A stretch of DNA of 20,000 nucleotides from an uncultured virus (IMG/VR IMGVR_UViG_3300033075_001165) (IMGVR_UViG_3300033075_001165), one strand, 5' to 3'; shown: positions 4,688 to 19,325, counted from the stretch's first letter. A program made the numbers and translations. Notes: generated from the sequence alone by a model not told the origin.

Positions 4688-5206
4688 TTACGCATTCCCT
4701 TTAGGATTCTCAAGGTCTAAAGCTTCGAGTTTAGCCACATTAGCAAATCCTTCTTTTCTTGAGTCATTACGTTTTTCCATACGCCCTTTAAACGCTGGTA
4801 CAATGTAAGTTTCGGGGGTTACTGCACAATAGATGTTATGTTCATTAACTACTAAGTAAGTGTTACCGTCAGAATGTAGTATTTGAAAGTAATTTTGATA
4901 AGCATCAAATAACACTCGCTGAGATATTTTGATAGGCAACGACACATCTGCCCCTAATCGCGCGATAATTCCAATTTTAGTATCCCCTTCTTTATCACCA
5001 GTCCCTCTTAGGAATATACCTGAAGGTGTTTTGCGGTCTTTTTGTACTGCTGGTAATAATAAAATTTGATTTTTAAAAGGAATGGGGAGTCCTAATGGCG
5101 GAGTCCACTCGTCTTCTGATTCTAAAGCATAAATCTCTTTTAAGATTTCTTCTTTACGTTCTGCTCTTTCTCTTTCGATTTTCTGTGTAAATGTTTCTTT
5201 TTCCAT
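4688..5206 (-). CDS. groES: Phage co-chaperonin, GroES/Cpn10-like
   Basis: PFKNQILL...KTPSGIFL (mobile loop)...GIIARLG...RVLFD...YLVVNEHNIYCAV matches the Cpn10 pattern; N- and C-terminal extensions. Confidence 0.75.
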   Translation of the reverse strand: MEKETFTQKIERERAERKEEILKEIYALESEDEWTPPLGLPIPFKNQILLLPAVQKDRKTPSGIFLRGTGDKEGDTKIGIIARLGADVSLPIKISQRVLFDAYQNYFQILHSDGNTYLVVNEHNIYCAVTPETYIVPAFKGRMEKRNDSRKEGFANVAKLEALDLENPKGNA

Positions 5207-5208
5207 TG

Positions 5209-5793
5209 TTATTTATCTTTTATTATAATTACTACTTTTTGTTCAATTTGTTTTACTTTAATTTGAGAGGGGATAAACTTAGATACAATTCGAGGGCTAT
5301 CATCGGCGATAATTTTCATTTTAACTAACGCGTCGCCTATATGTTTAAAGCTGGCACAAAAATTATCCCAGTCCATAAATCTATTTTTATATCCAATGTA
5401 TTCAATAGTTACTTCGCCTATATGTTGTCTCATTTTGTTTTCTCGAAGCTGTTGAGATATGATAGTTTGATAAAGCTCTTTTTGTTTCTTTGTATTTGAC
5501 CAGTGACTTCTCATTAATCCTTTACTTCCGTTTAATCCAGCTATTAATCCGTCAATTACTAATACAGAGTGTTGGGGTAAAGAAATGGACGTAGAATCAT
5601 TAATTTCAGTAGGTTTAGTTAAGGTGTGCGTTTTTCTTTGAACAGAAGCGTTAGTTTCTATTGGAATATACCCTTTCTTTTGCCCTATAAACCCCTTTTT
5701 TATAACAGGAGGTATAAAGTTGCCATTAACATCTTTAGTGTATCCACGCTCAAGAAACCAGTCCTCTGTAAAATTATCAGGTTTTTTAGCCAT
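5209..5793 (-). CDS. RusA-like Holliday junction resolvase
   Basis: DWDN...K...DALV...IIADDS catalytic-type motif (DxDN/K/D/DD). Confidence 0.75.
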   Translation of the reverse strand: MAKKPDNFTEDWFLERGYTKDVNGNFIPPVIKKGFIGQKKGYIPIETNASVQRKTHTLTKPTEINDSTSISLPQHSVLVIDGLIAGLNGSKGLMRSHWSNTKKQKELYQTIISQQLRENKMRQHIGEVTIEYIGYKNRFMDWDNFCASFKHIGDALVKMKIIADDSPRIVSKFIPSQIKVKQIEQKVVIIIKDK

Positions 5794-5968
5794 TGGTTAA
5801 AAATGAATTTAATATAGTTCTATTTGGGCTATTGCCATAAATCATTTTCATTAATTGACTTGCTTGTCTTGTAGAAATAAGGATTAAATCTTTCTTTACC
5901 CGTTTTTTTAATTTTCGGAGTAATCGTTTACATTTATACCAATCTCTTCTCATTACTTTACCCTCCAA
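5786..5968 (-). CDS. Small basic hypothetical protein
   Basis: Overlaps both neighbours in a tightly packed operon. Confidence 0.45.
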   Translation of the reverse strand: MEGKVMRRDWYKCKRLLRKLKKRVKKDLILISTRQASQLMKMIYGNSPNRTILNSFLTNG

Positions 5969-6198
5969 ACTCTATAACCAGATGCGGTTTTTCTTTTAAT
6001 AAATTCACGTTTAATGTACGGCATTTTGCCTTTAACAATTAATCTTCTAACCCTTGAGCAATTTTGTAAAAACCCGTACGATTCGTGATTTGTTTTAAAA
6101 AATATACTATCTCCTGTTTTCATTTTAATAATGATTTCGGATATTCCTTTTACGCCAATTTTTGGAGGCGGTATAGGTATGTTTTTTTCTATTTTCAT
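5953..6198 (-). CDS. Small phage protein (MKIEKNIPIP... RVWRV family), possibly DNA-binding
   Basis: Recognisable N-terminal KIEKNIPIP, M.GDS.F and C-terminal RVWR motifs. Confidence 0.65.
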   Translation of the reverse strand: MKIEKNIPIPPPKIGVKGISEIIIKMKTGDSIFFKTNHESYGFLQNCSRVRRLIVKGKMPYIKREFIKRKTASGYRVWRVK

Positions 6199-6527
6199 TT
6201 AAATAGTTCTTGGTGTTTTTTAAGATTATTTATACACTCCAATTCATTATACGCTGATATTTCATACACAATTTTTCCTTTTTTAATCATTGGCTCTCCT
6301 ATGGTTAATAAAATTTTTATCCCATATCGAAAACATAACCATAGAACTTGAACTTGTGTAAGTCCTGAAAAATTCTCCTCTTTACGATAGTTCGACATTT
6401 GTGATTTAGTTAAAATCATACCCCTCTCCTCAGCATCTTTAATGATATGAGCGTTTTTTAATCCAAGTTCATTCCATCGTGTTAAGAGGCATTTGTGTAT
6501 TCCTTTTGATTCTTTAATTAAGTCCAT
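6195..6527 (-). CDS. Hypothetical protein, possible HTH
   Basis: LTKSQMSNYRK resembles an HTH recognition helix; ATGA overlap with the next gene. Confidence 0.55.
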   Translation of the reverse strand: MDLIKESKGIHKCLLTRWNELGLKNAHIIKDAEERGMILTKSQMSNYRKEENFSGLTQVQVLWLCFRYGIKILLTIGEPMIKKGKIVYEISAYNELECINNLKKHQELFK

Positions 6528-6529
6528 AA

Positions 6530-6850
6530 TTATACAGTGTATTCTTTAGCAAATTGTTCCCACATAAATTTAACGGGGGACTCTTTAATTTCTTTTACAT
6601 TTAGTTTTAATTCTTCAGGAGTGATTTTACCTTGATAAAGAGTTTGTCCAACTACATATTTACCATCTTCTCTTATTTCAATAATTAATACTTGAGAGTT
6701 AGTTGATTCATAAGATTCTGCACCTCTGCAAATAGGGTTTTCATACACTTCACCGCGAAATTCTAATCCTATTTCTTTTCCTTTTTTGTTAATTAATCCA
6801 TGTTCTGTGTAGTTATGGATAATCGTGTTTTCTGGGGTTATTGTTTCCAT
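6530..6850 (-). CDS. Hypothetical protein
   Basis: 106 aa, tightly packed in the operon. Confidence 0.65.
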   Translation of the reverse strand: METITPENTIIHNYTEHGLINKKGKEIGLEFRGEVYENPICRGAESYESTNSQVLIIEIREDGKYVVGQTLYQGKITPEELKLNVKEIKESPVKFMWEQFAKEYTV

Positions 6851-7306
6851 TTATTTTTTAATAATTGTTTTATAATATCGTGAATGATACTGCTCAGGGT
6901 CGGGGGTTGAAATATCATTTTCATCACACCAAAATCTTACTTTTTCTATAAACTCTGAGTATTCTTTTTTACTTAAATCGGCGCTACTTCTTACTTTATG
7001 CCTAATGTAGCTTTTGTCGGGCGTTACAACTTGTTCGGTGTAGCTTAGAAACAAATCAGCGAAAAATTCATGTATCTTATCATTGTTTTCAAAGTGAGCA
7101 AAATATTCAGAGTTTTTGCAAGCTGAATATATTGCCCCCCTTAGATACCCATGCATGTCGATTGAAGGTTTTTTATGCTGTTCTTCAATTATCTCCACAA
7201 AATTCTTTCCTTCAAGTTCTTGCAATTGTTGTTTATAAAGAAAGGGATTATCATACAGCTTTTTGCCGTTGACTACCCTTCCTCTATGTTTAATTACAAG
7301 TTTCAC
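6851..7306 (-). CDS. NinB/Orf-like recombination protein
   Basis: GYLRG...IHEFF...F and C-terminal RSSADLSKKEYSEFIEKVRFWC...I.TPDP motif; start codon uncertain. Confidence 0.7.
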   Translation of the reverse strand: MKLVIKHRGRVVNGKKLYDNPFLYKQQLQELEGKNFVEIIEEQHKKPSIDMHGYLRGAIYSACKNSEYFAHFENNDKIHEFFADLFLSYTEQVVTPDKSYIRHKVRSSADLSKKEYSEFIEKVRFWCDENDISTPDPEQYHSRYYKTIIKK

Positions 7307-8080: not shown

Positions 8081-8116
8081 TTTATTTGTTTTTTAGATTA
8101 TTAATTTATCGGTTTA

Positions 8117-8162
8117 TATTTTACAAAGATACTAAAGGTTATTATATTTTACAACTTTATTT
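8117..8162 (-). promoter_or_regulatory. Bacteroidetes-type sigma-A promoter
   Basis: TATCTTTG (TAnnTTTG, -7) at 8124-8131 with TTG about 20 bp upstream; near-copy of 10774-10820. Confidence 0.65.
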
Positions 8163-8169
8163 TAAGATA

Positions 8170-8451
8170 TTAACTAAGTAATTCTAAATCAGTGTAATTA
8201 GTTTTAGTGTTTCGTTTTTTATGGTATTTACGTTGATATTTTTTGCGGGATTTTGTTAATCCTTTCTTCTTATTTCCATGTGTTTTTATAACTCCAAAAA
8301 AGGGTACGTCCAATCTAAATACCTGACCTCTTTTTAACACTCTGTTTATAGGAGAAACATAAGACTGTATTATCATACGAATGGCTTTTTCTTCAAATCT
8401 TGGATTCATCCGCGATAATTTTCTGTAAATATTATCCTTCTTAACTAGCAA
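8170..8451 (-). CDS. HU/IHF-like small basic DNA-binding protein (divergent)
   Basis: Helical N-terminus then VLKRGQVFRLDVPFFGVIK resembling the HU L..G..V...FG.F motif; very basic tail. Confidence 0.5.
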   Translation of the reverse strand: MLVKKDNIYRKLSRMNPRFEEKAIRMIIQSYVSPINRVLKRGQVFRLDVPFFGVIKTHGNKKKGLTKSRKKYQRKYHKKRNTKTNYTDLELLS

Positions 8452-9337
8452 TAGATAGTGTTTTTGTTTGATTTAAAGAATTATTTAATAACAAAGCGTC
8501 TACCTTATCAAAGTTGTTTTGCATTCCTTGTATGGTTAATCTGCAATAATAATCGCGGGTAGTTTGAATATCGGCGTGTCCTAAAAATTCACTTACGTAC
8601 ATATCAGAAGCGCCGTTATCAAGTAGGTGGGTGGCACGGGATGAGCGTAATATATGTGGATAAACTCTTTTATCTATTCCGCAAAGCTTGGCAGTGTTTT
8701 TAATAATATTTTCCACTGATTTAGCGGAATATTGCAATCTACCACCATCACCGTTAAATACATAAACGTGGGGGACAAAATCGGCTAAGTATTGGATAAG
8801 TAGTTCTTTTGTTTGTTCAGGGATTGTAATCACTCTGCTTTTACCATATTTGCTTCCTATTATTGTTATTCTTCTATCGTGGGATAAATGCTCTATTTTA
8901 AGATTAAGTAGTTCTCCGCGCCTTAAAGCGCCATAATAAAGCAAATTAATAATCGCCAGATGTTTTAAATAAATAGGGGCATTACACATAGCCATACATT
9001 CTTGATAACTTAAAATGTTAGGAGTTTTAAGGGGATTGTCGTGATATTCTAAGTTTTTACATTGAGTGTATTTGCCATTAATTTTATAAAGACGTTTTAT
9101 AGATGCTATGAATGAATTTATATAAGCTGGAGAATATTCTTGTTCTTTTAAATAAACAATATAATCTTCAAGTTTTTCTTGGTTGCACAGTAGCACTGAA
9201 ATAGAGTCAAATTTACCCCATTCCATAAACATTCCTATGTTGTTACAATAAGTTTTAGCAGTTTTGAAATTTCCACCAACTGCCAAAATCTTTCGACTAA
9301 ATTTTTTTAAAAATTCTTTATTTTCTTCTTGTAACAT
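8441..9337 (-). CDS. Tyrosine recombinase, putative cassette integrase of the integron-like system
   Basis: Catalytic set intact: LRRGE (R), SKYGKSR (K), HILR (HxxR), LGH, TTRDYY (Y). No IntI-type insertion between the K loop and YVF. Divergent from an attI-like site 45 bp upstream. Confidence 0.9.
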   Translation of the reverse strand: MLQEENKEFLKKFSRKILAVGGNFKTAKTYCNNIGMFMEWGKFDSISVLLCNQEKLEDYIVYLKEQEYSPAYINSFIASIKRLYKINGKYTQCKNLEYHDNPLKTPNILSYQECMAMCNAPIYLKHLAIINLLYYGALRRGELLNLKIEHLSHDRRITIIGSKYGKSRVITIPEQTKELLIQYLADFVPHVYVFNGDGGRLQYSAKSVENIIKNTAKLCGIDKRVYPHILRSSRATHLLDNGASDMYVSEFLGHADIQTTRDYYCRLTIQGMQNNFDKVDALLLNNSLNQTKTLSIAS

Positions 9338-9385
9338 ATTGATTGTTAATTTGTTTTTATATAGAATGCGTTAATAAGAGAGTTA
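9292..9385 (+). repeat. 94-bp direct repeat copy 1: integrase 5' end plus attI-like site (attI-1, crossover G|TT at 9382)
   Basis: 93/94 identical to 15448-15541 (single C/T at 9328 vs 15484); identity stops right after ...AGAGAGTTA. Confidence 0.92.
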
Positions 9386-9425
9386 TGTTCAATTTTATTT
9401 TATTAATTTTTAAAAGCCTACGCAC

Positions 9426-9773
9426 CTATGTTCGTGTATAGTCAATCCCTCTATCATCATAATCCCAATCACTATCAATAGTAAATTTATCAATCATTTC
9501 TGTTTGGTATTCTATTGATTTTTTCAGCCCCTCAATTTGCGTTTTAAGTCCTTTTACTTTCAACTCTCTTTGCTCTTTAATGTATTGTTTTGCTTCATCT
9601 AAACTTTTGAAATATTTATCTGAAACCATACTTAAACAAATTCGCCAATTGTATTCAGTTCCTCTGCTTCTCAACGCTCTAACAAATGCGTATCTGTCTG
9701 TCAGGTTTACGCAATCACGTTCCCATATTCTAACTAAATCATCTTTTACTACATACACTTTGAAAAATTCCAT
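9426..9773 (-). CDS. Cassette 1 hypothetical protein
   Basis: ATG at 9773 (MEFFKVY...) preferred; the upstream in-frame extension to 9818 runs through an inverted repeat. Confidence 0.7.
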   Translation of the reverse strand: MEFFKVYVVKDDLVRIWERDCVNLTDRYAFVRALRSRGTEYNWRICLSMVSDKYFKSLDEAKQYIKEQRELKVKGLKTQIEGLKKSIEYQTEMIDKFTIDSDWDYDDRGIDYTRT

Positions 9774-9834
9774 TTCCTTCGCTTTTTTAAAAATTAATAA
9801 AATAAAACTGCCACACACACTTGCCTACGCACCA

Positions 9835-9914
9835 ACATAACACAACCTAAAATCAAACCGCCATCACCAAACCGCTTATAAAGGCGGTCAGCTTTTAGCT
9901 TGATGCCGTTAGCG
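9835..9914 (+). other. attC-like site 1 (80 bp)
   Basis: ACATAAC-A-CAACCTAAAA..ACCGCC / GGCGGT..TTTTAGCTTG-ATGCC-GTTAGCG; AACATAAC complements GTTATGTT at 9382. Confidence 0.85.
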
Positions 9915-9920
9915 GTAATG

Positions 9921-10703
9921 CTAAAAACCGCATCGCTGACAAGCAATCTCATAATATTTAGGTTCTTTTTCAATCCCGATAAATTTACGGTTAAGTTCTT
10001 TTGCAGCCAAGCAAGTAGTTCCGCTTCCCATAGTGTTATCCATCACATTCATTCCTTCGTTAGTAAATGTACTAATCAACCACTTTAATAAACCTATTGG
10101 CTTTTCTGTTCTATGCTTTGCAATACTTGGATGTATTTTTTCAAAAGTCAATATACTTTTAGGGTGTTTCATATCACCAAGTATTTCTTTATTATCCACA
10201 AAATCAAACGCACCATAGTTATTATTGGCAGTTTGTTTTGGCTTCCCTTTACTGTGGTTTGGTTTTCCTTTTACTTTTTGTGGGTTGTAAATCGGCTGTT
10301 TTCTATAAAATACCATTATATCCTCGTGGCTTCGTAAAGGCATCCTGTTTGCGTTTAAAAATCCACTTGTAAGCACTTTGTCCCAAATCAAATTGTATTT
10401 ATGGTTTTTATCACTAAGCATCATTAATGCAGTAAACTTGTCCTGCCCAAATAAAACAATCGGAGCGTTTGGTTTTACAATTCGCCAATACTGTTCCCAT
10501 AAATTTTCAGGGTCAATCATTATATCATCTTTATTTTGCGTTACCTCATAAGGCAAATCGCAAAGCACCATATCAATACTATTATCAGGTATCAAAGGCA
10601 TAATATCCAAGCAATCGCCTTGAAATAAAGCACTACCGCTAACATCGGCTATATGCAATAGCGGGGTCGGTGCGTTCTTCAACATTTGTTCTACTATCAT
10701 CAT
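9921..10703 (-). CDS. Cassette 2: amino (m6A/m4C) DNA methyltransferase, beta class
   Basis: GDCLD, DLPY (motif IV) N-terminal; H.TEKP and DNTMGSGTT (motif I) C-terminal. Confidence 0.92.
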   Translation of the reverse strand: MMIVEQMLKNAPTPLLHIADVSGSALFQGDCLDIMPLIPDNSIDMVLCDLPYEVTQNKDDIMIDPENLWEQYWRIVKPNAPIVLFGQDKFTALMMLSDKNHKYNLIWDKVLTSGFLNANRMPLRSHEDIMVFYRKQPIYNPQKVKGKPNHSKGKPKQTANNNYGAFDFVDNKEILGDMKHPKSILTFEKIHPSIAKHRTEKPIGLLKWLISTFTNEGMNVMDNTMGSGTTCLAAKELNRKFIGIEKEPKYYEIACQRCGF

Positions 10704-10766
10704 TCGTTCTATATTTTAAGTTTTGTGTTTCAAATCCGCTACTGCACATAGCCGTAGTCGTTATAC
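10637..10766 (+). other. attC-like site 2 (130 bp)
   Basis: CGCTAAC-AT-CGGCTATATGCAATAGCGG / CCGCTACTGCACATAGCCG-TAGTC-GTTATAC; AGCACTACCGCTAAC complements the cassette start GTTAGCGGTAATGCT at 14/15. Confidence 0.9.
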
Positions 10767-10773
10767 ATCATTT

Positions 10774-10820
10774 TATACTACAAAGATAATAAAAGGTTAC
10801 AATATTTAATAACTTTATTT
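10774..10820 (-). promoter_or_regulatory. Bacteroidetes-type promoter pointing into array 1 and the integrase
   Basis: TATCTTTG at 10781-10788; about 45 bp aligns with the 8117-8162 promoter. Confidence 0.65.
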
Positions 10821-10852
10821 GTTAAATGTTTAAAACTTGGTTCATCCGCCGA

Positions 10853-12220
10853 TTAAAACGTTTCATTACTACCACTTGAAATACCCTCTGGAACGTAATC
10901 AGAGTACTTAGAATAGCGTCCGTCAAATCGGGCATATACAGGTCTGGGTGTAACATATCTGCTCTTACCAAGCCCTATTTCAACTACACCCTTTAAACTA
11001 TTGCCGTTTTCATCCACTGGATTCTTATCATAATATTCTGGGCGGTATAACAACAACACTAATATACCAACAGCCTCGATGCCTCCTGAGCCTTTTAAAT
11101 CGCTCATGCGAGGGCGAGGGGGCACACGTCTTTCAACATCGCGGGATAACTGAGATAATAGCACCATGCAAATATTGTATTTCTTAGCGATATTATTTAA
11201 TTGTTGACAACGCAAGTCTAATATCTGTTCATCTGATTTATTTTTTATTTCGTCAGGGGTATTGTTCATTAACTGCAAGTAATCTATAAAGCAAAGGATA
11301 GGGATAGTCATCGGCGTTTTTTTTCGCATCTTTCTAAATTTATTCTCCACATATTGCCAAGTTATACCCGCGGTATCATCTATCAACAGATTGTCTTTAA
11401 ATCGATTTCTTATTCCTTTAATGACGTTTATATCATCTTCGCCAGCGTTCCCGCTTCTAAGTGTAAAAGAATTGATTTCTGTGGCGTTTGATATGATGTT
11501 AGTCATAATCTCAATAGCTGGCATTTCAAGGCTAAAGAAAATAGTTGGCACTCTATCTTCAATAGCATTCTTTTTTAAGATGGTAACAAGAAACGCGGTT
11601 TTGCCCATTGCAGGGCGACCAGCGATTATATTAACCCCCTGCATTATGCCGCCAGTTTTTTCATCAAGTTCTTTTACTCCAAATGAATATCCAACTAAGG
11701 CTTTTTTATTTTCTTTAAGGTCAATTATCCTTTGTAAGGCTTCTTCAAAATATTCATCAATCTGTTTATCTTTAGATACATTATTTATTACCCCTTCAAT
11801 ATCTGTAATCTTGTTTTTAACCTTATCCAACACTTCTTGAACTTCACCATGTTCTGAACTAAAATCCGTATGAGCTTCATAGAGTACGGGTAACATTTTT
11901 CGGCGGACAAGATTATCAAATAGTATTTTCACCTTTGGCTCAGACTTAAGTGACGTGTTCATGTCAAATACAGCTTTGGAGCATAAATCTATTGATGTGT
12001 TTTTAGGATAACCAAGTTTTGTAAGTTCGTTTAAAAGAATAGAGAAATCGGTGGTAATGCTTTTTTGATGATTAAGCTTTATTATTTTATAAACCTGTTG
12101 TTTTATTTTAGAGGTAAAAATATGTTCTGAAACAAGGTGTTCGCAAGTTTCAAATAGGTCGGGCTTAGAACAGTATGTTCCAAGAATTTTATTTTCTATG
12201 TCATCAAGGTTACTGGTCAT
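10853..12220 (-). CDS. dnaB: Replicative DNA helicase, DnaB-like
   Basis: AGRPAMGKT, FFSLEM, IDYLQL, LLSQLSR, PRMSDLKGSGGIE motifs. Confidence 0.95.
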   Translation of the reverse strand: MTSNLDDIENKILGTYCSKPDLFETCEHLVSEHIFTSKIKQQVYKIIKLNHQKSITTDFSILLNELTKLGYPKNTSIDLCSKAVFDMNTSLKSEPKVKILFDNLVRRKMLPVLYEAHTDFSSEHGEVQEVLDKVKNKITDIEGVINNVSKDKQIDEYFEEALQRIIDLKENKKALVGYSFGVKELDEKTGGIMQGVNIIAGRPAMGKTAFLVTILKKNAIEDRVPTIFFSLEMPAIEIMTNIISNATEINSFTLRSGNAGEDDINVIKGIRNRFKDNLLIDDTAGITWQYVENKFRKMRKKTPMTIPILCFIDYLQLMNNTPDEIKNKSDEQILDLRCQQLNNIAKKYNICMVLLSQLSRDVERRVPPRPRMSDLKGSGGIEAVGILVLLLYRPEYYDKNPVDENGNSLKGVVEIGLGKSRYVTPRPVYARFDGRYSKYSDYVPEGISSGSNETF

Positions 12221-12765
12221 GATTTAAAATTTAAATAAGCAAATTCGCCAAAAAGTTCTTTGGCTTTTTTATCATAAGCTAAAGCTGCGTCTAATTCGTT
12301 TTTAAAACATCCTATGTGTATTTTTTTATTTTGAAATCCAATTGATGCAGTCCAAGAATAATATTCTTTTTTTATTCCGTGTTTAAGAGTGTGTTTTGTT
12401 TTTTTTAATGTAACTCCTTTGTAAATGGAGAATAGGTTTTTGTTAAACCCTCTATTAATATTGTTTTGAGAATGAGTTGCTATTCTTAAATTTATTTTCT
12501 GATTATTAACTCCGTTTCTATCGGCATGGTCTACAAATGTTTTTGGGTCTGTTAAATTCATTATAAACCTATGCATTTGCACCATTTGTCGTTTTCCAGT
12601 TAAATTATTTTTTATTCCCGCAGTAGCGTAAAAACAACTATCTCCCTTGATGGCATTCCAATTATACATATTTACTTTAAAAAAATCTTCGTCATCAACT
12701 TGAGCAAATTTTGGAGCGTCCTTGTGCTTGTTTTCTTTAAATTTGTTTAATTTTATTAATTTCAT
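12217..12765 (-). CDS. HNH homing endonuclease with C-terminal AP2 domain
   Basis: AQVDDED, MHRFIM, VDHADRNGVNNQKINLR; AP2-like W.ASI...IGCF..E.DAALAYD..A..LFGEFAYLNF. ATG at 12765 preferred over 12876. Confidence 0.9.
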   Translation of the reverse strand: MKLIKLNKFKENKHKDAPKFAQVDDEDFFKVNMYNWNAIKGDSCFYATAGIKNNLTGKRQMVQMHRFIMNLTDPKTFVDHADRNGVNNQKINLRIATHSQNNINRGFNKNLFSIYKGVTLKKTKHTLKHGIKKEYYSWTASIGFQNKKIHIGCFKNELDAALAYDKKAKELFGEFAYLNFKS

Positions 12766-12888
12766 ATTTAAAATGTTCCCTACTCCACTAAAGGCTACAC
12801 CGCTACCCTTATGGGTATTGGACAATAATGTTTCGGGAATATTTTTAATGTTTTTCATAGAACGATGTAGCGGCACAAAGATGCTAAA

Positions 12889-13254
12889 TTATTCTTTTTG
12901 AAAAAAATTATTTACTACTGAATTTTCTTTGTTATTAACAATTTTATTGACCTCAACAAACCAAACTCCCATCATTTTTTGTTTCCAGTTTTTCACTTGG
13001 TTTCCTTTAGAATCTTTCCATCCAGCTATGTCATAGTAATTAAAAGCCTTTTCTGCTGAAACTTCACTATACCCTTTCTCTTTAAAATAAGCTTTTACTT
13101 CTTCAAGTGTCGGTGGAATAAACTTAGGCTTCACTTTCTTATTATAAACACCAAGTTTAGTGAGTTGAATATTCCCATCTACTACTATATATTTAAAGAT
13201 AGTACCGTTCATTACGAACTCAGTTGATTCGGGGATTATAATAGGCTTGCTCAT
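12889..13254 (-). CDS. Replication initiator/replisome-organizer-like C-terminal domain protein
   Basis: FIPPTLEEV..YF...FNYY...GW.....VKNWK motif; upstream of DnaB. Confidence 0.65.
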   Translation of the reverse strand: MSKPIIIPESTEFVMNGTIFKYIVVDGNIQLTKLGVYNKKVKPKFIPPTLEEVKAYFKEKGYSEVSAEKAFNYYDIAGWKDSKGNQVKNWKQKMMGVWFVEVNKIVNNKENSVVNNFFQKE

Positions 13255-13601
13255 TACTCCTCAATTATAGGATTCTGAATAGTTACTTTGTTTTCTACTG
13301 GGGGTACTTGTTCTGCTAAATCACTTATAATACCTTTTTGCAACGATTTAAGCTCACTTATCAACCTTACTACATTATGCTTATGCGCTTTGTAATGCTC
13401 GTTGTAAAGAGGTCTATTGGATTCTTTTACTTTGTTTTGATAATCCAGTGTATTCTCAGCAACAATTTGAGCAAAAGAAACGGCGGCTAATGCGTTTTTG
13501 GTGGAATCAAGTTCGCTCATATCTTCGTCAAAAGAGATGCTAAATGTTTTGTCGTCATATTCTATTGAGAAATTTAGCGACCCTGTTAGTTTTTGTGTCA
13601 T
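13254..13601 (-). CDS. Hypothetical protein
   Basis: 115 aa, TAATG coupling with the next gene. Confidence 0.7.
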   Translation of the reverse strand: MTQKLTGSLNFSIEYDDKTFSISFDEDMSELDSTKNALAAVSFAQIVAENTLDYQNKVKESNRPLYNEHYKAHKHNVVRLISELKSLQKGIISDLAEQVPPVENKVTIQNPIIEE

Positions 13602-13602
13602 A

Positions 13603-15150
13603 TTATTTGGTTTTTCTATTGTTTATTTCATCAAATGCTTTTATTGCCTGTGCCTTACTTACAAATCCATCTACTTTATATCCCTTTATCCTTAATAAAT
13701 TTACCTGTGCCTCACTTGCTGGTTGAGATAAAAATATTTCATTAATCTGTTGTTTTGTGTAAGCTACATCTATAATATTAAATCCCCAATTTTTTATTGC
13801 ATTAAGCTGGGCTAAAGTTGCAGGCTCACTCATCTTAGGAGAAAGGTTTAGTTTAACACGGGGTAAAATTAATAAATTTACATGTTCATCTTTGTCTCTG
13901 TTAGTATCTATTTTTGTTAATCTTATTTCCCTGTCCTCAATTAATTTTTGTCTTTTTTCGGCTGATATAAAACATCTGTCTTGAGGTTCTTTTTCTTTTT
14001 CAATTTCGTGACAATTAATTAAATTATGTTTAGTGGTTAAATCGATAAAATCTAATACCGTCATTTTTTGACCAAATCTTCTAACGTAATTATCGTCTTT
14101 TAAACGAGTGCCGCGCCCTAATTGTTGAATGTATCGTGCCTTAGATTTAGTGGGTGCTACACATCCAATTATGCCAGTATTCGGCGCGTCAAAACCACAT
14201 GTTAAAATATTTACGTTTACTAAAACATCAATTTTACCTTCTTTGTATGCTTTAATTTTATGGCTTCTATCGCCAGTTAATTGTTCATCACTACTTACGG
14301 CTTCGGCATTCACACCTTTCATTTTGAATGATTCAACCAAGTCCAAAGCGTGTAAAATATCTACTGCAAAAAATATACCCTGTCTTCCATTACCATACTT
14401 AATATAAGAATCAGCCACCAAATTATTTCGAGACAAACAATTTACAGTTCCAGCTAATTCTTTTTGATTAAACTCCCCTCCTAATGTTTTTACTTTATCA
14501 AGACTAACGTTTGTTTTTACACGCACACAATCTATTTCACACAAATAACCTTCATCTATAGCTGTTTTAATTTCGTATTCGTAAACTTTCTCGGTAAATA
14601 AATTGCTGAGTTGTAATCCGTCAAGACGTTCGTCGGTTGCTGTTATACCGAGAAGTAATTTAGGGTTGAAATATTGGGCTGATTTAATGAATGTGGGACT
14701 CATAAAAAGATGAGCTTCGTCACATATAACAAATTCCATTTCATCAGGGTCAAATAGATGAAGGTTTCTGTGTAACGATTGAGCTGAACACATCACAATA
14801 TTACCATGTGTTTGTTTTACATCAGCCTTTACAAGTCCCATTTTAAATTCTCCGCCCGCAAAAACACCGCCATCTTTAATGTAATCAACAAATCCAAGCT
14901 CTTCTATGTGATTGGATAGGCTATCGTCAAAACGCTCTCTAATAAAGGCTAATGAGCTTTGGTCTATTAATTCTTCAGTATGGGTAATCCAAATTCCTCG
15001 TGTATAACCAAGCCTTTCAATTAGCTTAACAACTGAAAAAGTTTTACCACTTCCCACAGGTAACACCGCAAGTTGTTTATCGGAGCCTCTGTTTAGAGCT
15101 TCAATAACCGCTTCGTGAAACGTATGTTGATATGGGCGGATAGTTTTCAA
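13603..15150 (-). CDS. Superfamily 2 (DEAH) DNA helicase
   Basis: RPYQ, PVGSGKT, CDEAH, GITAT, GFDAP, QQLGRGTR; TTG start abutting the upstream stop. Confidence 0.93.
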   Translation of the reverse strand: MKTIRPYQHTFHEAVIEALNRGSDKQLAVLPVGSGKTFSVVKLIERLGYTRGIWITHTEELIDQSSLAFIRERFDDSLSNHIEELGFVDYIKDGGVFAGGEFKMGLVKADVKQTHGNIVMCSAQSLHRNLHLFDPDEMEFVICDEAHLFMSPTFIKSAQYFNPKLLLGITATDERLDGLQLSNLFTEKVYEYEIKTAIDEGYLCEIDCVRVKTNVSLDKVKTLGGEFNQKELAGTVNCLSRNNLVADSYIKYGNGRQGIFFAVDILHALDLVESFKMKGVNAEAVSSDEQLTGDRSHKIKAYKEGKIDVLVNVNILTCGFDAPNTGIIGCVAPTKSKARYIQQLGRGTRLKDDNYVRRFGQKMTVLDFIDLTTKHNLINCHEIEKEKEPQDRCFISAEKRQKLIEDREIRLTKIDTNRDKDEHVNLLILPRVKLNLSPKMSEPATLAQLNAIKNWGFNIIDVAYTKQQINEIFLSQPASEAQVNLLRIKGYKVDGFVSKAQAIKAFDEINNRKTK

Positions 15151-15423
15151 TTATACTTTAAACTCAATAGGTGAAACATTAATTGACACTATAATTTCTT
15201 CTTTTTGTAATTGTGATAAGAAAGCATTTACTAAATGTGTCTTGTATGTGTTATGGTTTTTGTTTGATAATTTCCAGCATTTCTTTTTTACATCCATCGG
15301 CAGTTCAATTTTCTTCACTTCTTCTATCCAATCATAAATAAGATGCCCGCTTGAGCAAGTTCCATGTTCATAGAATGATTTTAATCCATGTGCGATTAAT
15401 TGTGTCCGCCAATCAATTTTCAT
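15151..15423 (-). CDS. Hypothetical protein
   Basis: 90 aa, abuts the helicase start. Confidence 0.65.
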   Translation of the reverse strand: MKIDWRTQLIAHGLKSFYEHGTCSSGHLIYDWIEEVKKIELPMDVKKKCWKLSNKNHNTYKTHLVNAFLSQLQKEEIIVSINVSPIEFKV

Positions 15424-15493
15424 TTATTAGACAAATCATTGTTTTTGTTCGACTAAATTTTTTTAAAAATTCTTTATTTTCTTTTTGTAACAT
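15413..15493 (-). pseudogene. Integrase N-terminal remnant (26-aa ORF MLQKENKEFLKKFSRTKTMICLINEN)
   Basis: First 15 codons match the integrase start (one E>K change); the stop overlaps the start region of 15151-15423. Confidence 0.7.
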
Positions 15494-15541
15494 ATTGATT
15501 GTTAATTTGTTTTTATATAGAATGCGTTAATAAGAGAGTTA
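15448..15541 (+). repeat. 94-bp direct repeat copy 2: attI-like site 2 (crossover G|TT at 15538)
   Basis: 93/94 identical to 9292-9385; diverges after GTTA into cassette 3. Confidence 0.92.
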
Positions 15542-15550
15542 GCGGTAATA

Positions 15551-15937
15551 CTAATACAAGTCCTCCGAGAATAATCTGTTACCTCTAATTTCTTTAATAT
15601 CCATTACCTGATTTTCTCTCAATGCAATAATTAGTGCTTCTTCACGGCTTACAAATCTGTTTTTAGAAGTAAGAAAGCCTTGTTCATTTTCTCCGCTTTC
15701 AGCATCTCGCAAACCAGTTACAGCACATTTGGTATAAATACATTGCCCGTGTCTATGTCCGCTAAATACTAATCCTGTTGGGCAGTTTTTGGGGTTTGTG
15801 CTTTCAAATGGTATTTCCTTTTTAATCGGAATTTCTTTATACCAAACAGCAGCACATATTATTCGCTCCGAACCCGTACTACCGCTAACAGCACATAGGC
15901 AAAAAAGCCGTTTCAGTTTCATAAGAATATTTTTCAT
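15551..15937 (-). CDS. Cassette 3 hypothetical phage protein
   Basis: IICAA.W...G.RH..C...QGFLTSKNRFVSREEA..IA...Q....LFSEDLY resembles a conserved phage family; candidate starts (15946/15937/15922) all lie inside attC3. Confidence 0.8.
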   Translation of the reverse strand: MKNILMKLKRLFCLCAVSGSTGSERIICAAVWYKEIPIKKEIPFESTNPKNCPTGLVFSGHRHGQCIYTKCAVTGLRDAESGENEQGFLTSKNRFVSREEALIIALRENQVMDIKEIRGNRLFSEDLY

Positions 15938-16007
15938 AAGTATCAAATTTATCGTTTCAAATTAAGTTTTCGTTACGGCTTCTTCGCCTATCTGCAAAAC
16001 GTTAGCA
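15883..16007 (+). other. attC-like site 3 (125 bp)
   Basis: CGCTAAC-A-GCACATAGGCAAAAAAGCCGT / ACGGCTTCTTCGCCTATCTGC-AAAAC-GTTAGCA; left flank complements the cassette start at 13/14. Confidence 0.9.
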
Positions 16008-16937
16008 ACAAGCGGGTGAAGTGCTTCGATTAAGCGTTGTGCAAGTTTGACCATAATTATTTTTTTGCCATCCCACGTTGGTTTTTTCAAAACCATTTAG
16101 GAAAGAAAAAATATGTTCTACTATTCCAACAGTCCAACCATCACCAATTAAGTTACCTGCTTGTGCTTTATTTAAGTTCCGTGTATATCCTTCGGGTATA
16201 TTATGCAACCTTTCAAGTTCTGTTTGTGTGCAATATCGTACCCCTTTTGTTTCGTCCATTTTTTCATCCGTGTAAATTATAGTTGTCATTCCAGTTGTTG
16301 CGTATCGGTGCAACATATATCTTTGGTTTGCATCTCGGCCGCAACTTGTATTTAAACAAGTATGTTTTTTCTTGTCAGAATATCCGTATTCCAAAACATC
16401 GTTTAAGTATATTTTTTGGTCTTTAGGTTGTGGTATCGCACATTTTCTATTGCCAAATAAATCTCTATATTCGGGGCCTATATTAGTCCAAAACAATCTA
16501 TCTCTTAATGCTCCACTTACTCTACTTCCGCAAAGTCTTACAGGTTCGGTTCCTAATAAATCGGTTATTGTATTATATCCTAAATCGTCCATAATCACAT
16601 TTTCAAGTAAATAGTAAGTCGGTTTAGTTTCTTCCAGTAATCGAATGTATTCGTAAAATAACATTGATTTCATACCTTTTAACCCGTCTCTTACACTATT
16701 TGCCCTACTAAAGTCCTGGCACGGACTGCCGCCAATCAATAAATCAATTTTAGGCAAATCAATACCTTTTACTTTGGTTACATCTCCTATTTGTTTTGTG
16801 TTCGGGAAATTATCTAAAGTGCATTGTATTGCGTGTTTTTTAATCTCACTTGCAAAATAGTTTTCAATATTAAAACCTAAATTGTTAAGCGCAATTTGTC
16901 CGCAACTCATACCATCAAATAAACTTAATACGTTCAT
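16002..16937 (-). CDS. Cassette 4: C5-cytosine DNA methyltransferase
   Basis: LSLFDG (motif I), GGSPCQ (IV), ENV (VI), R.RLFW (VIII), GDGW (X); stop codon lies in the GTTA core. Confidence 0.92.
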   Translation of the reverse strand: MNVLSLFDGMSCGQIALNNLGFNIENYFASEIKKHAIQCTLDNFPNTKQIGDVTKVKGIDLPKIDLLIGGSPCQDFSRANSVRDGLKGMKSMLFYEYIRLLEETKPTYYLLENVIMDDLGYNTITDLLGTEPVRLCGSRVSGALRDRLFWTNIGPEYRDLFGNRKCAIPQPKDQKIYLNDVLEYGYSDKKKHTCLNTSCGRDANQRYMLHRYATTGMTTIIYTDEKMDETKGVRYCTQTELERLHNIPEGYTRNLNKAQAGNLIGDGWTVGIVEHIFSFLNGFEKTNVGWQKNNYGQTCTTLNRSTSPACC

Positions 16938-17025
16938 AAAATAATTTTTTAAAATCCCCCCCTCAAAAAAAATAATTATTACAGTTGTGTTTCAATTTAG
17001 CGGTCGGAGGTTAAAGTCCGCCAGT

Positions 17026-17124
17026 TGCTAACACGTTGTATATGTCAGTTTTGCCAATTGGCATTGTGCTTTAAATGAAAGTATGTGCGTGGCAAAACCG
17101 AACACATACAACTATTCGTTATAA
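17026..17124 (+). other. attC-like site 4 (99 bp)
   Basis: TGCTAAC-AC-GTTGTATATGTCAGTTTTGCCA / TGGCAAAACCGAACACATACAAC-TATTC-GTTATAA; left flank complements the cassette start at 13/15. Confidence 0.9.
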
Positions 17125-17367
17125 GCCATTTTGAAAATCGACCTCGTGAAATTCTTTGAAGTAATCTAAAAATTGTTTTCTCGCCCAATCGTGTTCACCT
17201 TTGCTCTCAATTTCTAAATCTTCTTTCAATAAGTCTATAACAAGTGCGTTGCCTCTAAATGACATTTTGATAATGTCACCTACTTCGCTATTTTCTACAG
17301 CATCACCGTAATCGTTTTCATTAAACCAATTTTTAGTTAGGTTATGATAATAAGTTGATTGTCCCAT
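17119..17367 (-). CDS. Cassette 5 small acidic hypothetical protein
   Basis: 82 aa; stop TAA lies in the GTTA core. Confidence 0.7.
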   Translation of the reverse strand: MGQSTYYHNLTKNWFNENDYGDAVENSEVGDIIKMSFRGNALVIDLLKEDLEIESKGEHDWARKQFLDYFKEFHEVDFQNGL

Positions 17368-17409
17368 TTTGATAGTTTAAATTGTTATGCCAAACACGAA
17401 TAAAACGGC

Positions 17410-17505
17410 TTATAACAGTGGTTTGGCAAAATACCGCCATAAGCATTTGTACTAAATTTCAACATTCTGCAAGGCGGTACTTCGCCAAGCCACCAAACGT
17501 TACCT
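17410..17505 (+). other. attC-like site 5 (96 bp)
   Basis: TTATAAC-A-GTGGTTTGGCAAAATACCGCC / GGCGGTACTTCGCCAAGCCAC-CAAAC-GTTACCT; left flank complements the cassette start at 14/15. Confidence 0.9.
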
Positions 17506-18488: not shown

Positions 18489-18564
18489 AGGTAACAAGGT
18501 ATATACGCAATTTTTCCACCGCTAAACCCAACGCACAACTGCGTATATACCCGAAACGTTAGTA
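18489..18564 (+). other. attC-like site 6 (76 bp)
   Basis: AGGTAAC-AA-GGTATATACGCA / TGCGTATATACC-CGAAAC-GTTAGTA (perfect 12-bp stem); left flank complements the cassette start at 13/15. Confidence 0.9.
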
Positions 18565-18568
18565 GCAA

Positions 18569-18832
18569 TTATTTTTTGCTACGTTCTGCACAAAATTTAC
18601 AGTTTCCTTTATGTGTCATCATTTGTGAGTAACCAACGCCTGATATTAAGTATTGGCAACTGTCAAATTCTATTATTGATATTTGATAGCCATTAACTTC
18701 TACTGCTGTTTTAAATATTTTTGAGCGTTCTTCGGCTCTATCTATTTCATCACAACCGCAAAAAATAACAGCTACTAACAGCACATAAGCAAGAGCAAAG
18801 CAATTGCGGTAATTTGAGATTTTTGTTTTCAT
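18569..18832 (-). CDS. Cassette 7: small putative lipoprotein
   Basis: FALAYVLLVAVIFCGC signal/lipobox-like; D.CQY...THKGNC..C motif. Confidence 0.75.
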   Translation of the reverse strand: MKTKISNYRNCFALAYVLLVAVIFCGCDEIDRAEERSKIFKTAVEVNGYQISIIEFDSCQYLISGVGYSQMMTHKGNCKFCAERSKK

Positions 18833-18904
18833 AATAATATTTAGTTTTAAGATTAAATTTTTGTTTTTAAGGCTTTGCCCTCGCTTATCTGCGATACGTT
18901 AACG
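18773..18904 (+). other. attC-like site 7 (132 bp)
   Basis: TACTAAC-A-GCACATAAGCAAGAGCAAAGC / GCTTTGCCCTCGCTTATCTGC-GATAC-GTTAACG; left flank complements the cassette start at 20/22. Confidence 0.92.
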
Positions 18905-18910
18905 GCAATT

Positions 18911-19255
18911 CTAATCTGCTCCCCACCGCTCGGATACATAATTCATTATATCTTTTAATTCGTCTGCTACAATGGTTGTCTGCCAGCTTCCATAAGTCAA
19001 CACCTCACAGCACCATTTTGAGGATTGCTTATCCCACCAACAATATCCGCAAAAGTTCCATCCACTATATTGTGCCGATAAATCTTTGCCCTTTATTTCT
19101 GTTGCTACTTTTTCATCTATGCAATGGTCAAAGTTGCTCATTACCGTTTCTCCGAAATCCTCAAAATGCTCAGGCAACCGCACATTAGAACTGCCGTTAA
19201 CAAGGGCTTTACTCAATGCCTCTGTTTCGTTTGTATTTGAAATTTTGTTTTCCAT
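18911..19255 (-). CDS. Cassette 8 hypothetical protein (Trp/acidic-rich)
   Basis: 114 aa; ATG inside attC8 after an A-rich tract. Confidence 0.75.
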   Translation of the reverse strand: MENKISNTNETEALSKALVNGSSNVRLPEHFEDFGETVMSNFDHCIDEKVATEIKGKDLSAQYSGWNFCGYCWWDKQSSKWCCEVLTYGSWQTTIVADELKDIMNYVSERWGAD

Positions 19256-19325
19256 TTTATGTTTTATTTTAAGTTGATAATTTCGTTTTCAAAGTCGGCA
19301 CTAAATAAAGCCCCAACCGTTAAAC
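19195..19325 (+). other. attC-like site 8 (131 bp)
   Basis: CGTTAAC-AA-GGGCTTTACTCAATGCC / GGCACTAAATAAAGCCC-CAACC-GTTAAAC; left flank complements the cassette start at 17/18. Confidence 0.92.

Follow-up and report, generated by a model that had tools for sequence, protein, structure and literature searches.

The window analysed here, a stretch of 20,000 nucleotides from an uncultured virus (IMG/VR IMGVR_UViG_3300033075_001165), has a gene content of the phage type and appears to be part of a phage of Flavobacteria-type hosts, which occurs in river, wastewater and other samples. Within it we studied a gene for a tyrosine recombinase, a 94-bp direct repeat of which one copy covers the start of this gene, and the small genes that lie beside both copies of the repeat (Table 1).

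The repeated start of a recombinase gene

The longest repeat of the window, as found by a repeat search, is a direct pair of 94 nt whose copies are identical at 93 positions, start 6156 bp apart and differ by a single C/T at 9328/15484. A fuzzy search with the first 30 nt, allowing up to eight mismatches, found only these two copies and no third one in the window. Read on the minus strand, each copy consists of TAAC, 44 nt, ATG and 43 further nt, that is, nt 1-46 of the open reading frame (ORF) of the recombinase and the 48 nt upstream of it. In both copies identity stops at ...GAGAGTTA, and the sequence beyond is unrelated; GTTAAT occurs twice inside the repeat, at 9345 and 9370. The terminus GTTA is the joint between gene cassettes in these phages, G/TTA on the plus strand (a slash marks the joint throughout). 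The original prediction had described the pair, its spacing, its extent, both GTTAAT sites and an end of identity where different cassettes begin; all of this holds, and the end can be placed exactly at the joint. The 44 nt between GTTA and the start codon are called element E below. In copy 2, E stands as an orphan before a recombinase stub of 15 codons, and through this copy the replication operon gains the leader of the recombinase gene together with a coupled upstream ORF (uORF).

The recombinase consists of a SAM-like core-binding domain (PF13495) and a catalytic domain (PF00589, 95 bits) and no others, as expected of an enzyme that acts on Xer/dif or Cre/lox sites. Its best NCBIfam match is XerA_Arch with 155 bits (cut-off 220). 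The predicted attI platform would imply an integron integrase, which this enzyme is not: the models for such integrases reach only 80.9 bits (TIGR02249, cut-off 265) and 35.4 bits (NF011946, cut-off 435), and because both scores are far below their cut-offs we regard the enzyme as Xer-like and not as IntI. Relatives of the protein are found in metagenomes (112 proteins at E <= 1e-10, with about 82 clusters at 49-100% identity), and 13 metagenome loci encoding such relatives were available. Their N-termini begin MI--SNEEFLKKFSRKII and align with the 15 codons inside the repeat, so that the coding part of the repeat is native to the recombinase and copy 2 is the derived copy. Among the genomes of 185,579 prokaryotic species, one genome each, three loci encode relatives at 35-40% identity and none exceeds 40%; relatives integrated in host chromosomes, the mark of a temperate-phage integrase, were thus not found beyond these three matches, which argues against an ordinary prophage integrase. 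One relative is present in IMG/VR (L017, 56% identity). Single-protein scans of IMG/VR with the recombinase, the DnaB-like protein and the helicase found no close relatives, known phages reach at most 25-32% identity to the helicase and the recombinase of the window, and no DNA nearly identical to the window was found in GenBank phages or IMG/VR. A distant tyrosine recombinase (31%) is encoded at 4856-6064 of L026, a 195-kb viral contig, and starts right after a cassette YAAC/ (TAAC/TACTATATA...).

Cassettes with reconstructed split hairpins

The 12-mer ATTACCGCTAAC follows the stop codon of a methyltransferase gene of the window (9919-9908), of ORF131 (15549-15538) and of a variable ORF in the metagenome locus L009. 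About 57-60 nt into each of these ORFs stands the reverse complement of the 12-mer, which has one G.T mismatch and is read in frame as V-S-G-S. All 34 genes of the window were tested without bias for pairing of their 5' region with their 3' end, which proved significant in seven (z 4.9-9.8); the arm sequences of these seven vary, and their termini are constant, 5'-(T)GTTR ... YAAC(G)-3'. We describe a unit by the pattern GTTR-N5-[ACT]GT and, at a distance of 60-1600 nt behind it, A[CT]N-rc(N5)-YAAC, where rc is the reverse complement. Scanning 329,710 bases (the window and the loci, with L002, L004 and L014-L016 excluded) yielded 95 arm pairs with exactly complementary N5, representing 40 distinct N5, compared with 2 pairs in the wrong arm order and 1.2 in shuffled sequence. 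Opposite G11, where the scan permits C or T, T was found in 93 of the 95 pairs, both exceptions belonging to one palindromic pair in L038. An 18-mer around the arm that we call class A occurs in 38 IMG/VR contigs, 35 of which also have the 3' partner; the partner ends exactly 13 nt past the stop codon in 26 of these 35. Class A arms bracket a homologous methyltransferase as well as at least 10 unrelated small ORFs. The edges of the methyltransferase module are precise in the window and in 16 of the 17 viral contigs that could be assessed, with unrelated sequence up to YAAC/ and a conserved head from there on. Past the 3' arm the sequences diverge again (L043 has CGAC at this place, and L052 is cut by the end of the locus). 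The closest cultured DNA match of the module lies in 38-kb Flavobacterium siphophages (Muminvirus; 70.7% over 206 nt), and one cultured Flavobacterium phage, mumin9-1, holds five units in its leftward early region where 0.15 are expected, besides a sixth, AT-rich match elsewhere.

If a cassette is a circle that has been opened at YAAC/, its two arms should lie near each other in the circle whatever the length of the ORF. Measured from the previous YAAC/ to the GTTR arm of the cassette itself, the head is 116 nt long in the median (interquartile range 115-118, n=33), and 16 of the 22 units outside class A fall within 108-127 nt. The distance from arm to arm in the integrated state, in comparison, ranges from 145 to 1000 nt, and the arms of neighbouring cassettes agree at merely 0-4 of the five N5 positions. 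A constant head, a variable arm distance and complementarity to the own arm only are what a split hairpin of circular DNA predicts. There is also a second, co-varying inner stem, which keeps a fixed place some 5 nt behind the start of the head and 2 nt ahead of GTTR and has a mean of 6.1 bp versus 3.7 bp for mismatched partners (31 distinct heads). When the sites at their own junctions were folded as single-stranded DNA, three window cassettes gave -26.3 to -29.3 kcal/mol (z -6.4 to -7.5), compared with -15.7 to -22.5 kcal/mol for the same cassettes as integrated beside the neighbour's arm, and in all three the coding strand folded more stably than its complement, by 3.4-9.9 kcal/mol. The site reconstructed from both cassette ends matches the bottom strand of an attC in the order of its boxes (...YAA(C)/, spacer, stem, loop, stem, spacer, GTTR...) and an attC hairpin in size and strand bias, and its joint is compatible with AA/C or G/TT. 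We therefore regard the genes beside both copies of the repeat as true cassettes with attC-like split hairpins.

Two cassettes adjoin copy 1 and at least six, defined by their junctions, adjoin copy 2 up to the end of the window, in line with the two and six that had been claimed. The genes past copy 2 are ORF131, those of a C5 and of a second N6/N4 methyltransferase, and small ORFs. On the plus strand the order is the recombinase gene (leftward), E, G/TTA, cassette, cassette, and in this respect the layout is integron-like. The proposed seeding of a second array by copy 2 is conjectural. The 6156 bp between the copies are no row of cassettes and consist mostly of the replication operon, followed by the N6/N4 methyltransferase and orf130, and no bracketing arms or long-range arm pair were found around this operon. 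All cassette ORFs run in the direction of the recombinase gene and start inside the hairpin, rather than lying on the top strand and pointing away from the integrase. Homologues of orf90, ORF131, orf130 and orf93 were not found in the fetched loci.

Several further observations concern the cassettes. The hairpin (L' stem and R' arm) encodes the first 14-23 residues of many cassette proteins (window 10703-10632, 15946-15878 and 19255-19190; L018-L055), and for this reason unrelated cassette proteins share N-terminal ends such as ...LHIADVSGS. A homologous methyltransferase that lies outside a cassette, in L006, is without this N-terminal extension. The orf130 cassette has, apart from its outer arms, an inner 26-nt inverted repeat (9810-9785 / 9415-9390), and the 10-mer GTGCGTAGGC stands on both sides of its ORF (9832-9823 and 9425-9416); the same 10-mer recurs upstream of the recombinase in unrelated relatives (L006 23-32; L017 8108-8117), each occurrence being followed by a T-rich run. 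No Rfam family was found in the window. A literature search with the 12-mer arm strings returned unrelated contexts only, the bracketing architecture was not found in the literature searched, the description of Muminvirus makes no mention of an inverted repeat, stem-loop, hairpin or cassette, and a search on flavobacterial phages and cassettes gave nothing relevant among the matches listed.

Table 1. Position and strand of the features discussed, in window coordinates
Feature	Position	Strand	Remarks
Tyrosine recombinase	8441-9337	-	Xer-like 'simple' type, 298 aa; Pfam and NCBIfam profile matches
Repeat copy 1	9292-9385		recombinase nt 1-46 (9292-9337), 44-nt element E (9338-9381), GTTA (9382-9385) as terminus of the neighbouring cassette
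orf130 cassette	9382-9907	-	nearest the recombinase; outer arms GTTATGTT (9846-9839) and AACATAAC (9389-9382)
N6/N4 DNA methyltransferase cassette	9908-10759	-	head after TATAAC/ (10760); 5' arm GTTAGCGGTAGT (10643-10632), 3' arm ATTACCGCTAAC (9919-9908)
Replication operon	10853-15423	-	lies between copy 1 and copy 2; orf90, SF2 helicase, two small ORFs, HNH endonuclease, DnaB-like helicase; tightly packed, with adjoining or overlapping genes
DnaB-like helicase	10853-12220	-	
HNH endonuclease	12217-12876	-	
SF2 helicase	13603-15150	-	
26-codon uORF	15413-15493	-	MLQKENKEFLKKFSRTKTMICLINEN, stop; 15 recombinase codons and 11 unrelated codons; stop overlaps the orf90 ATG
Repeat copy 2	15448-15541		same content as copy 1, one mismatch (15484); joined to the stub, no recombinase gene
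ORF131 (phrog_839) cassette	15538-16000	-	abuts copy 2; arms 15889-15878 / 15549-15538, 12-mers identical to those of the N6/N4 methyltransferase cassette
C5 DNA methyltransferase cassette	16001-17117	-	YAAC/ joints at both ends only; no exact arm pair found
Arm pair of the orf82 cassette	17118-17416	-	GTTATAAGCCGTTTT / AAAATGGCTTATAAC
orf87 cassette	18558-18897	-	head 118 nt; arms GTTAGTAGCTGT.. / ..ATTGCTACTAAC
ORF114 cassette	18898-19318	-	head 117 nt; arms GTTAACGGCAGTTCTAAT.. / ..ATTAGAATTGCCGTTAAC

Element E in relatives and in natural variants

Element E, the 45-60 nt before the ATG, is kept in all nine close relatives that have sequence at this place. The heptamer AACGCAT stands exactly 9 nt past the joint in the window and in the six relatives that carry it, among them L001, L003, L006, L007 and, in the form AAAGCAT, the viral L017, and L008 and L009 have TGAGCAA instead. 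In all cases E starts directly behind a cassette YAAC, and beyond the joint, on the cassette side, the upstream sequences are unrelated throughout. E is better conserved than the coding sequence (79% versus 66% nucleotide identity to L006). The first cassette indeed varies among relatives: L008 and L009, two contigs from the same study, agree on both sides, at 99.97% over 3165 nt and at 100% over 1815 nt, and their sole difference is a single-ORF segment of 440 versus 343 nt that is nearest the recombinase, ends at the start of E and has YAAC before both of its edges. In seven of the nine close loci, including a 46-kb contig, the sequence stops on the upstream side of the recombinase match at a distance of 36-207 nt, and this suggests a branch point of the assembly graph near E in other samples as well. 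L002 begins precisely at the joint. Comparing the E region with phages by BLAST gave AT-rich noise only.

The stretch is present in sequencing runs of five studies, and we examined the Logan contigs (k=31) of four (runs X1, X5, X6 and X15). In X15 all four flanks of the two copies are present, at a depth of about 200-560 inside the 6-kb segment and 250-450 outside, and one contig of X1 spans 15151-15477, from orf90 to 30 nt into copy 2. Two X1 contigs leave the window sequence at 9908, the joint behind the methyltransferase cassette, and minority forms in X15 (depth 40-59 versus about 385) substitute 9394-9948 and the ORF of orf130, the cassette proximal to the recombinase. A form of low depth (3.8) in X5 joins 8096 to 10779 with 28 other letters between them and is without the methyltransferase, orf130, the recombinase and orf93. 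The ends of this skip sit in a repeat family, D10 (8114-8141 / 10771-10798), that carries TAtcTTTG, which we take to be the Bacteroidota -7 promoter motif.

Other variants were seen elsewhere in the window. The segment 12199-13081, which includes the HNH gene, is replaced by 214 other letters in X1, X5 and a minority of X15, and the HNH gene therefore looks like a mobile insertion in the replication operon. In contigs of X1, X5 and X6, 17 letters replace 935-1690 with the ORF 940-1689, which has a weak NUMOD1 match and probably encodes another free-standing endonuclease of the homing type. For the SF2 helicase gene, contigs of X1, X5 and a minority of X15 have a divergent allele of 1232 letters in place of the N-terminal two thirds (13914-15151). 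Downstream of the recombinase, 4688-7306 holds early genes of an ordinary phage kind, for a Cpn10-like co-chaperonin, a RusA-like resolvase and a NinB/Orf-like recombination mediator; none of them is bracketed by arms.

Possible explanations and relation to known systems

On balance we lean towards the view that the accessory genes of this phage form an integron-like cassette array with the Xer-like recombinase and E at one end, and that the repeat is a duplicated platform end, i.e. the last four bases of a docked cassette, E and the first 46 nt of the gene. Each cassette, when closed into a circle, would carry one hairpin of attC size, about 140-150 nt, formed on the coding strand by an R stem (...ATT-N5'-YAAC with GTTR-N5-AGT...), an internal loop of 5x2 nt, an L stem and a loop with the start codon in it. 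Were the circle opened at YAA(C)/, this hairpin would be split and its two R arms would come to lie at opposite ends of the integrated cassette. E is conserved and abuts the cassette terminus at a fixed position, and proximal cassettes differ between near-identical genomes; judged from sequence, E is most likely a docking (attI-like) site and at the same time the 5' leader of the recombinase gene. The recombinase would then move the cassettes with E as its site, and copy 2 may still work. Copy 1 heads the intact gene and copy 2 would be an orphan from a recombination event, possibly a cointegrate or unequal exchange followed by deletion of most of the second recombinase copy, or else the Campbell-type insertion, by way of the 94 homologous nt, of a circle of 6156 bp. 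Such an event would have left the replication operon and two cassettes between two platform ends.

Several findings weigh against this view. Of 39 viral records with these cassettes only two encode a tyrosine recombinase and 37 do not, none of the three cassette records that are at least 90% complete encodes one, and the cultured mumin9-1 with its five units has no annotated integrase. Cassettes of this kind therefore need no enzyme borne by the phage, and E and the gene beside it could be mere cargo. A dyad-symmetric core was not found either: no site common to the nine upstream regions and conserved in position was seen in or around E, nor was the 28-34-bp arrangement of inverted arms with a 6-8-bp spacer that marks Xer/dif or Cre/lox sites. 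The relatives offer no second E either, since no second copy of the region upstream of the recombinase was found within L001, L003, L006-L009 and L017 (several kb of context in L007, L008, L009 and L017), and in X5 another contig departs from the window at 15425, upstream of orf90, which means that not every form has copy 2. Site-specific exchange accounts for the outer edge of the repeat; the inner edge, which falls at codon 16 after 46 nt of coding sequence, is left unexplained by it and needs a second event. In addition, the contigs (k=31) of each of the four runs are interrupted within both copies, so that they cannot phase the four flanks. As for the records without an integrase, classical cassettes often occur without one as well, as CALINs (clusters of attC sites without an integrase) show (PMC9892861), so that the recombinase may still have a role. 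Alternatively, the cassettes may be moved by an enzyme of the host, with the recombinase of the window as cargo.

A further-reaching version, which we put forward only tentatively and consider unlikely as a whole, is that the virus carries a complete 'integron' of a non-IntI kind, in which the Xer-like recombinase joins folded cassette hairpins to E and, because E is present twice in direct order, can feed two arrays, and exchange between the two E can release or take up the 6.1-kb segment with the replication operon as a circle. If this were true, a core replication module would travel by the cassette machinery.

Among the other explanations, E might be nothing but an expression leader, consisting of a 5' untranslated region, the start and the first codons. 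The recombinase would then be cargo, one illegitimate or homologous exchange would have copied its head in front of the replication operon, where it supplies a start site and the 26-codon uORF translationally coupled to orf90, and the joints would be made by some other enzyme, e.g. one of the host. This is a minority possibility in our judgement, although it is in keeping with the many cassette-bearing records that have no recombinase, with the reach of the repeat into the coding sequence, with the overlap of the uORF stop and the orf90 start and with the missing dyad core; moreover, each cassette has its own conserved head right after the previous YAAC/, so that E behaves like any head. It is at odds with the fact that E has no hairpin head of the kind found in the other cassettes, is more conserved than the coding sequence and has no sigma-70-like promoter above chance. 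Against it also stand that near-identical genomes differ in content at the position proximal to E and that the distant recombinase of L026 likewise lies directly after YAAC/. The arms might alternatively act in RNA, by pairing of mRNA 5' and 3' ends for stability, processing or termination, while the modules are shuffled by homologous recombination as in PeSL elements and the repeat is a shared regulatory motif. The mismatches, G.T (G.U) on the coding strand, would suit RNA, as would the fixed register of the stop codon in the 3' arm (13 nt before the end of YAAC in 26 of 35 class A units), and PeSL elements yield mini-circles without a dedicated recombinase (PMC2839356). We nevertheless find it improbable, since the relation of heads and arms is the one predicted for split hairpins, numerous unrelated units follow one another, and border on E, without any spacer, and no Rfam family matches. 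A reading of the arms as a feature of the mRNA, with the recombinase as no more than cargo, likewise lost weight through the tests of head length, neighbouring arms and folding.

That the duplication is an assembly artefact, with the 94-bp repeat misresolved or chimeric, seems very improbable to us. In its favour, no contig bridges a copy with 31 nt on each side; however, the X1 contig, from an independent study, misses this by one nucleotide, the copies differ by one base, all four flanks have similar depth in X15, and the alternative resolution would strip the phage of its replication genes. A classical integron with IntI, attI and attC can hardly be maintained at all: the order of recombinase, site, G/TT and cassettes and the hairpins with GTT/AAC boxes would fit, but the enzyme scores far below both integrase models and the cassette ORFs are antisense and start inside the hairpin.

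The window also shares features with classical integrons. In both, a recombinase gene and an adjoining conserved element occupy one end of the array, the joint is G/TT on the strand opposite the recombinase gene, and the cassettes have specific hairpins, reconstructed ones in the window, with GTT/AAC boxes, an unpaired spacer, a second stem, a variable loop, attC size and strand bias. The window differs in its Xer-like enzyme and in its ORFs, which lie on the folding strand, begin in the hairpin loop and read through one arm, so that the arms encode at least four residues such as V-S-G-S. By its sequence the system thus appears integron-like in its working and yet falls outside integrons with respect to integrase and gene orientation. 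Xer recombinases can act on folded single-strand substrates, as for CTX-phi type IMEX, where a hairpin forms from inverted repeats of one strand, and modules of a recombinase and an adjacent site are exemplified by Cre/loxP and XerS/difSL; unlike in these systems, a search of E revealed no dyad site resembling dif or lox.

Three other systems are comparable in part. CALINs occur in virulent phages including a Polaribacter (flavobacterial) phage, with DNA methyltransferases as cargo and mostly without an integrase (Qi et al. 2023, PMC9892861). The present phage shares the arrays and the methyltransferase cargo, in a group of records where the enzyme is mostly absent; the CALIN sites, however, were called by classical attC models and assayed with IntI1 (PMC9892861), whereas the window has its own non-IntI recombinase and a twofold candidate docking site. 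In rAID-1 clusters of gut Bacteroidales an XerD-family recombinase adjoins co-directional small genes with repetitive intergenic sequences, termed reminiscent of integrons (Ross et al., bioRxiv 10.1101/471110), an arrangement resembling ours; these clusters are recognised by a recombinase at least 44% identical to the XerD-like protein of B. fragilis rAID-1 and by co-directional downstream genes, and they lie in bacterial chromosomes and encode immunity proteins (10.1101/471110), whereas the array of the window lies upstream, in a phage, and holds methyltransferases. In PeSL of T4-type phages conserved motifs flank accessory ORFs in plastic regions, and direct copies recombine to small circles (PMC2839356), which offers a model for what the two 94-bp repeats could do, namely recombine and release a 6156-bp circle. 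PeSL units are a sigma-70 promoter plus a terminator stem-loop and recombine by general recombination at variable points (PMC2839356), whereas the joints of the window are exact to the base and its arms co-vary per cassette; in 9200-10000 we found three promoter-like sequences where 3.3 are expected and no terminator-like one. What is new here is a phage that carries a recombinase together with a candidate docking site, and a platform end duplicated around a replication operon.

Since integrons are defined by IntI, a parallel Xer-like system in Bacteroidota and their phages would mean that the capture of hairpin cassettes has arisen or spread beyond IntI. As the cassettes carry DNA methyltransferases, such a system would let phages exchange protection from restriction by their hosts. 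The natural duplication and the nine relatives narrow the candidate docking site to about 45-90 bp, and with the enzyme, this site and the cassettes on one molecule, the question of which enzyme moves the cassettes and where it docks becomes directly testable.

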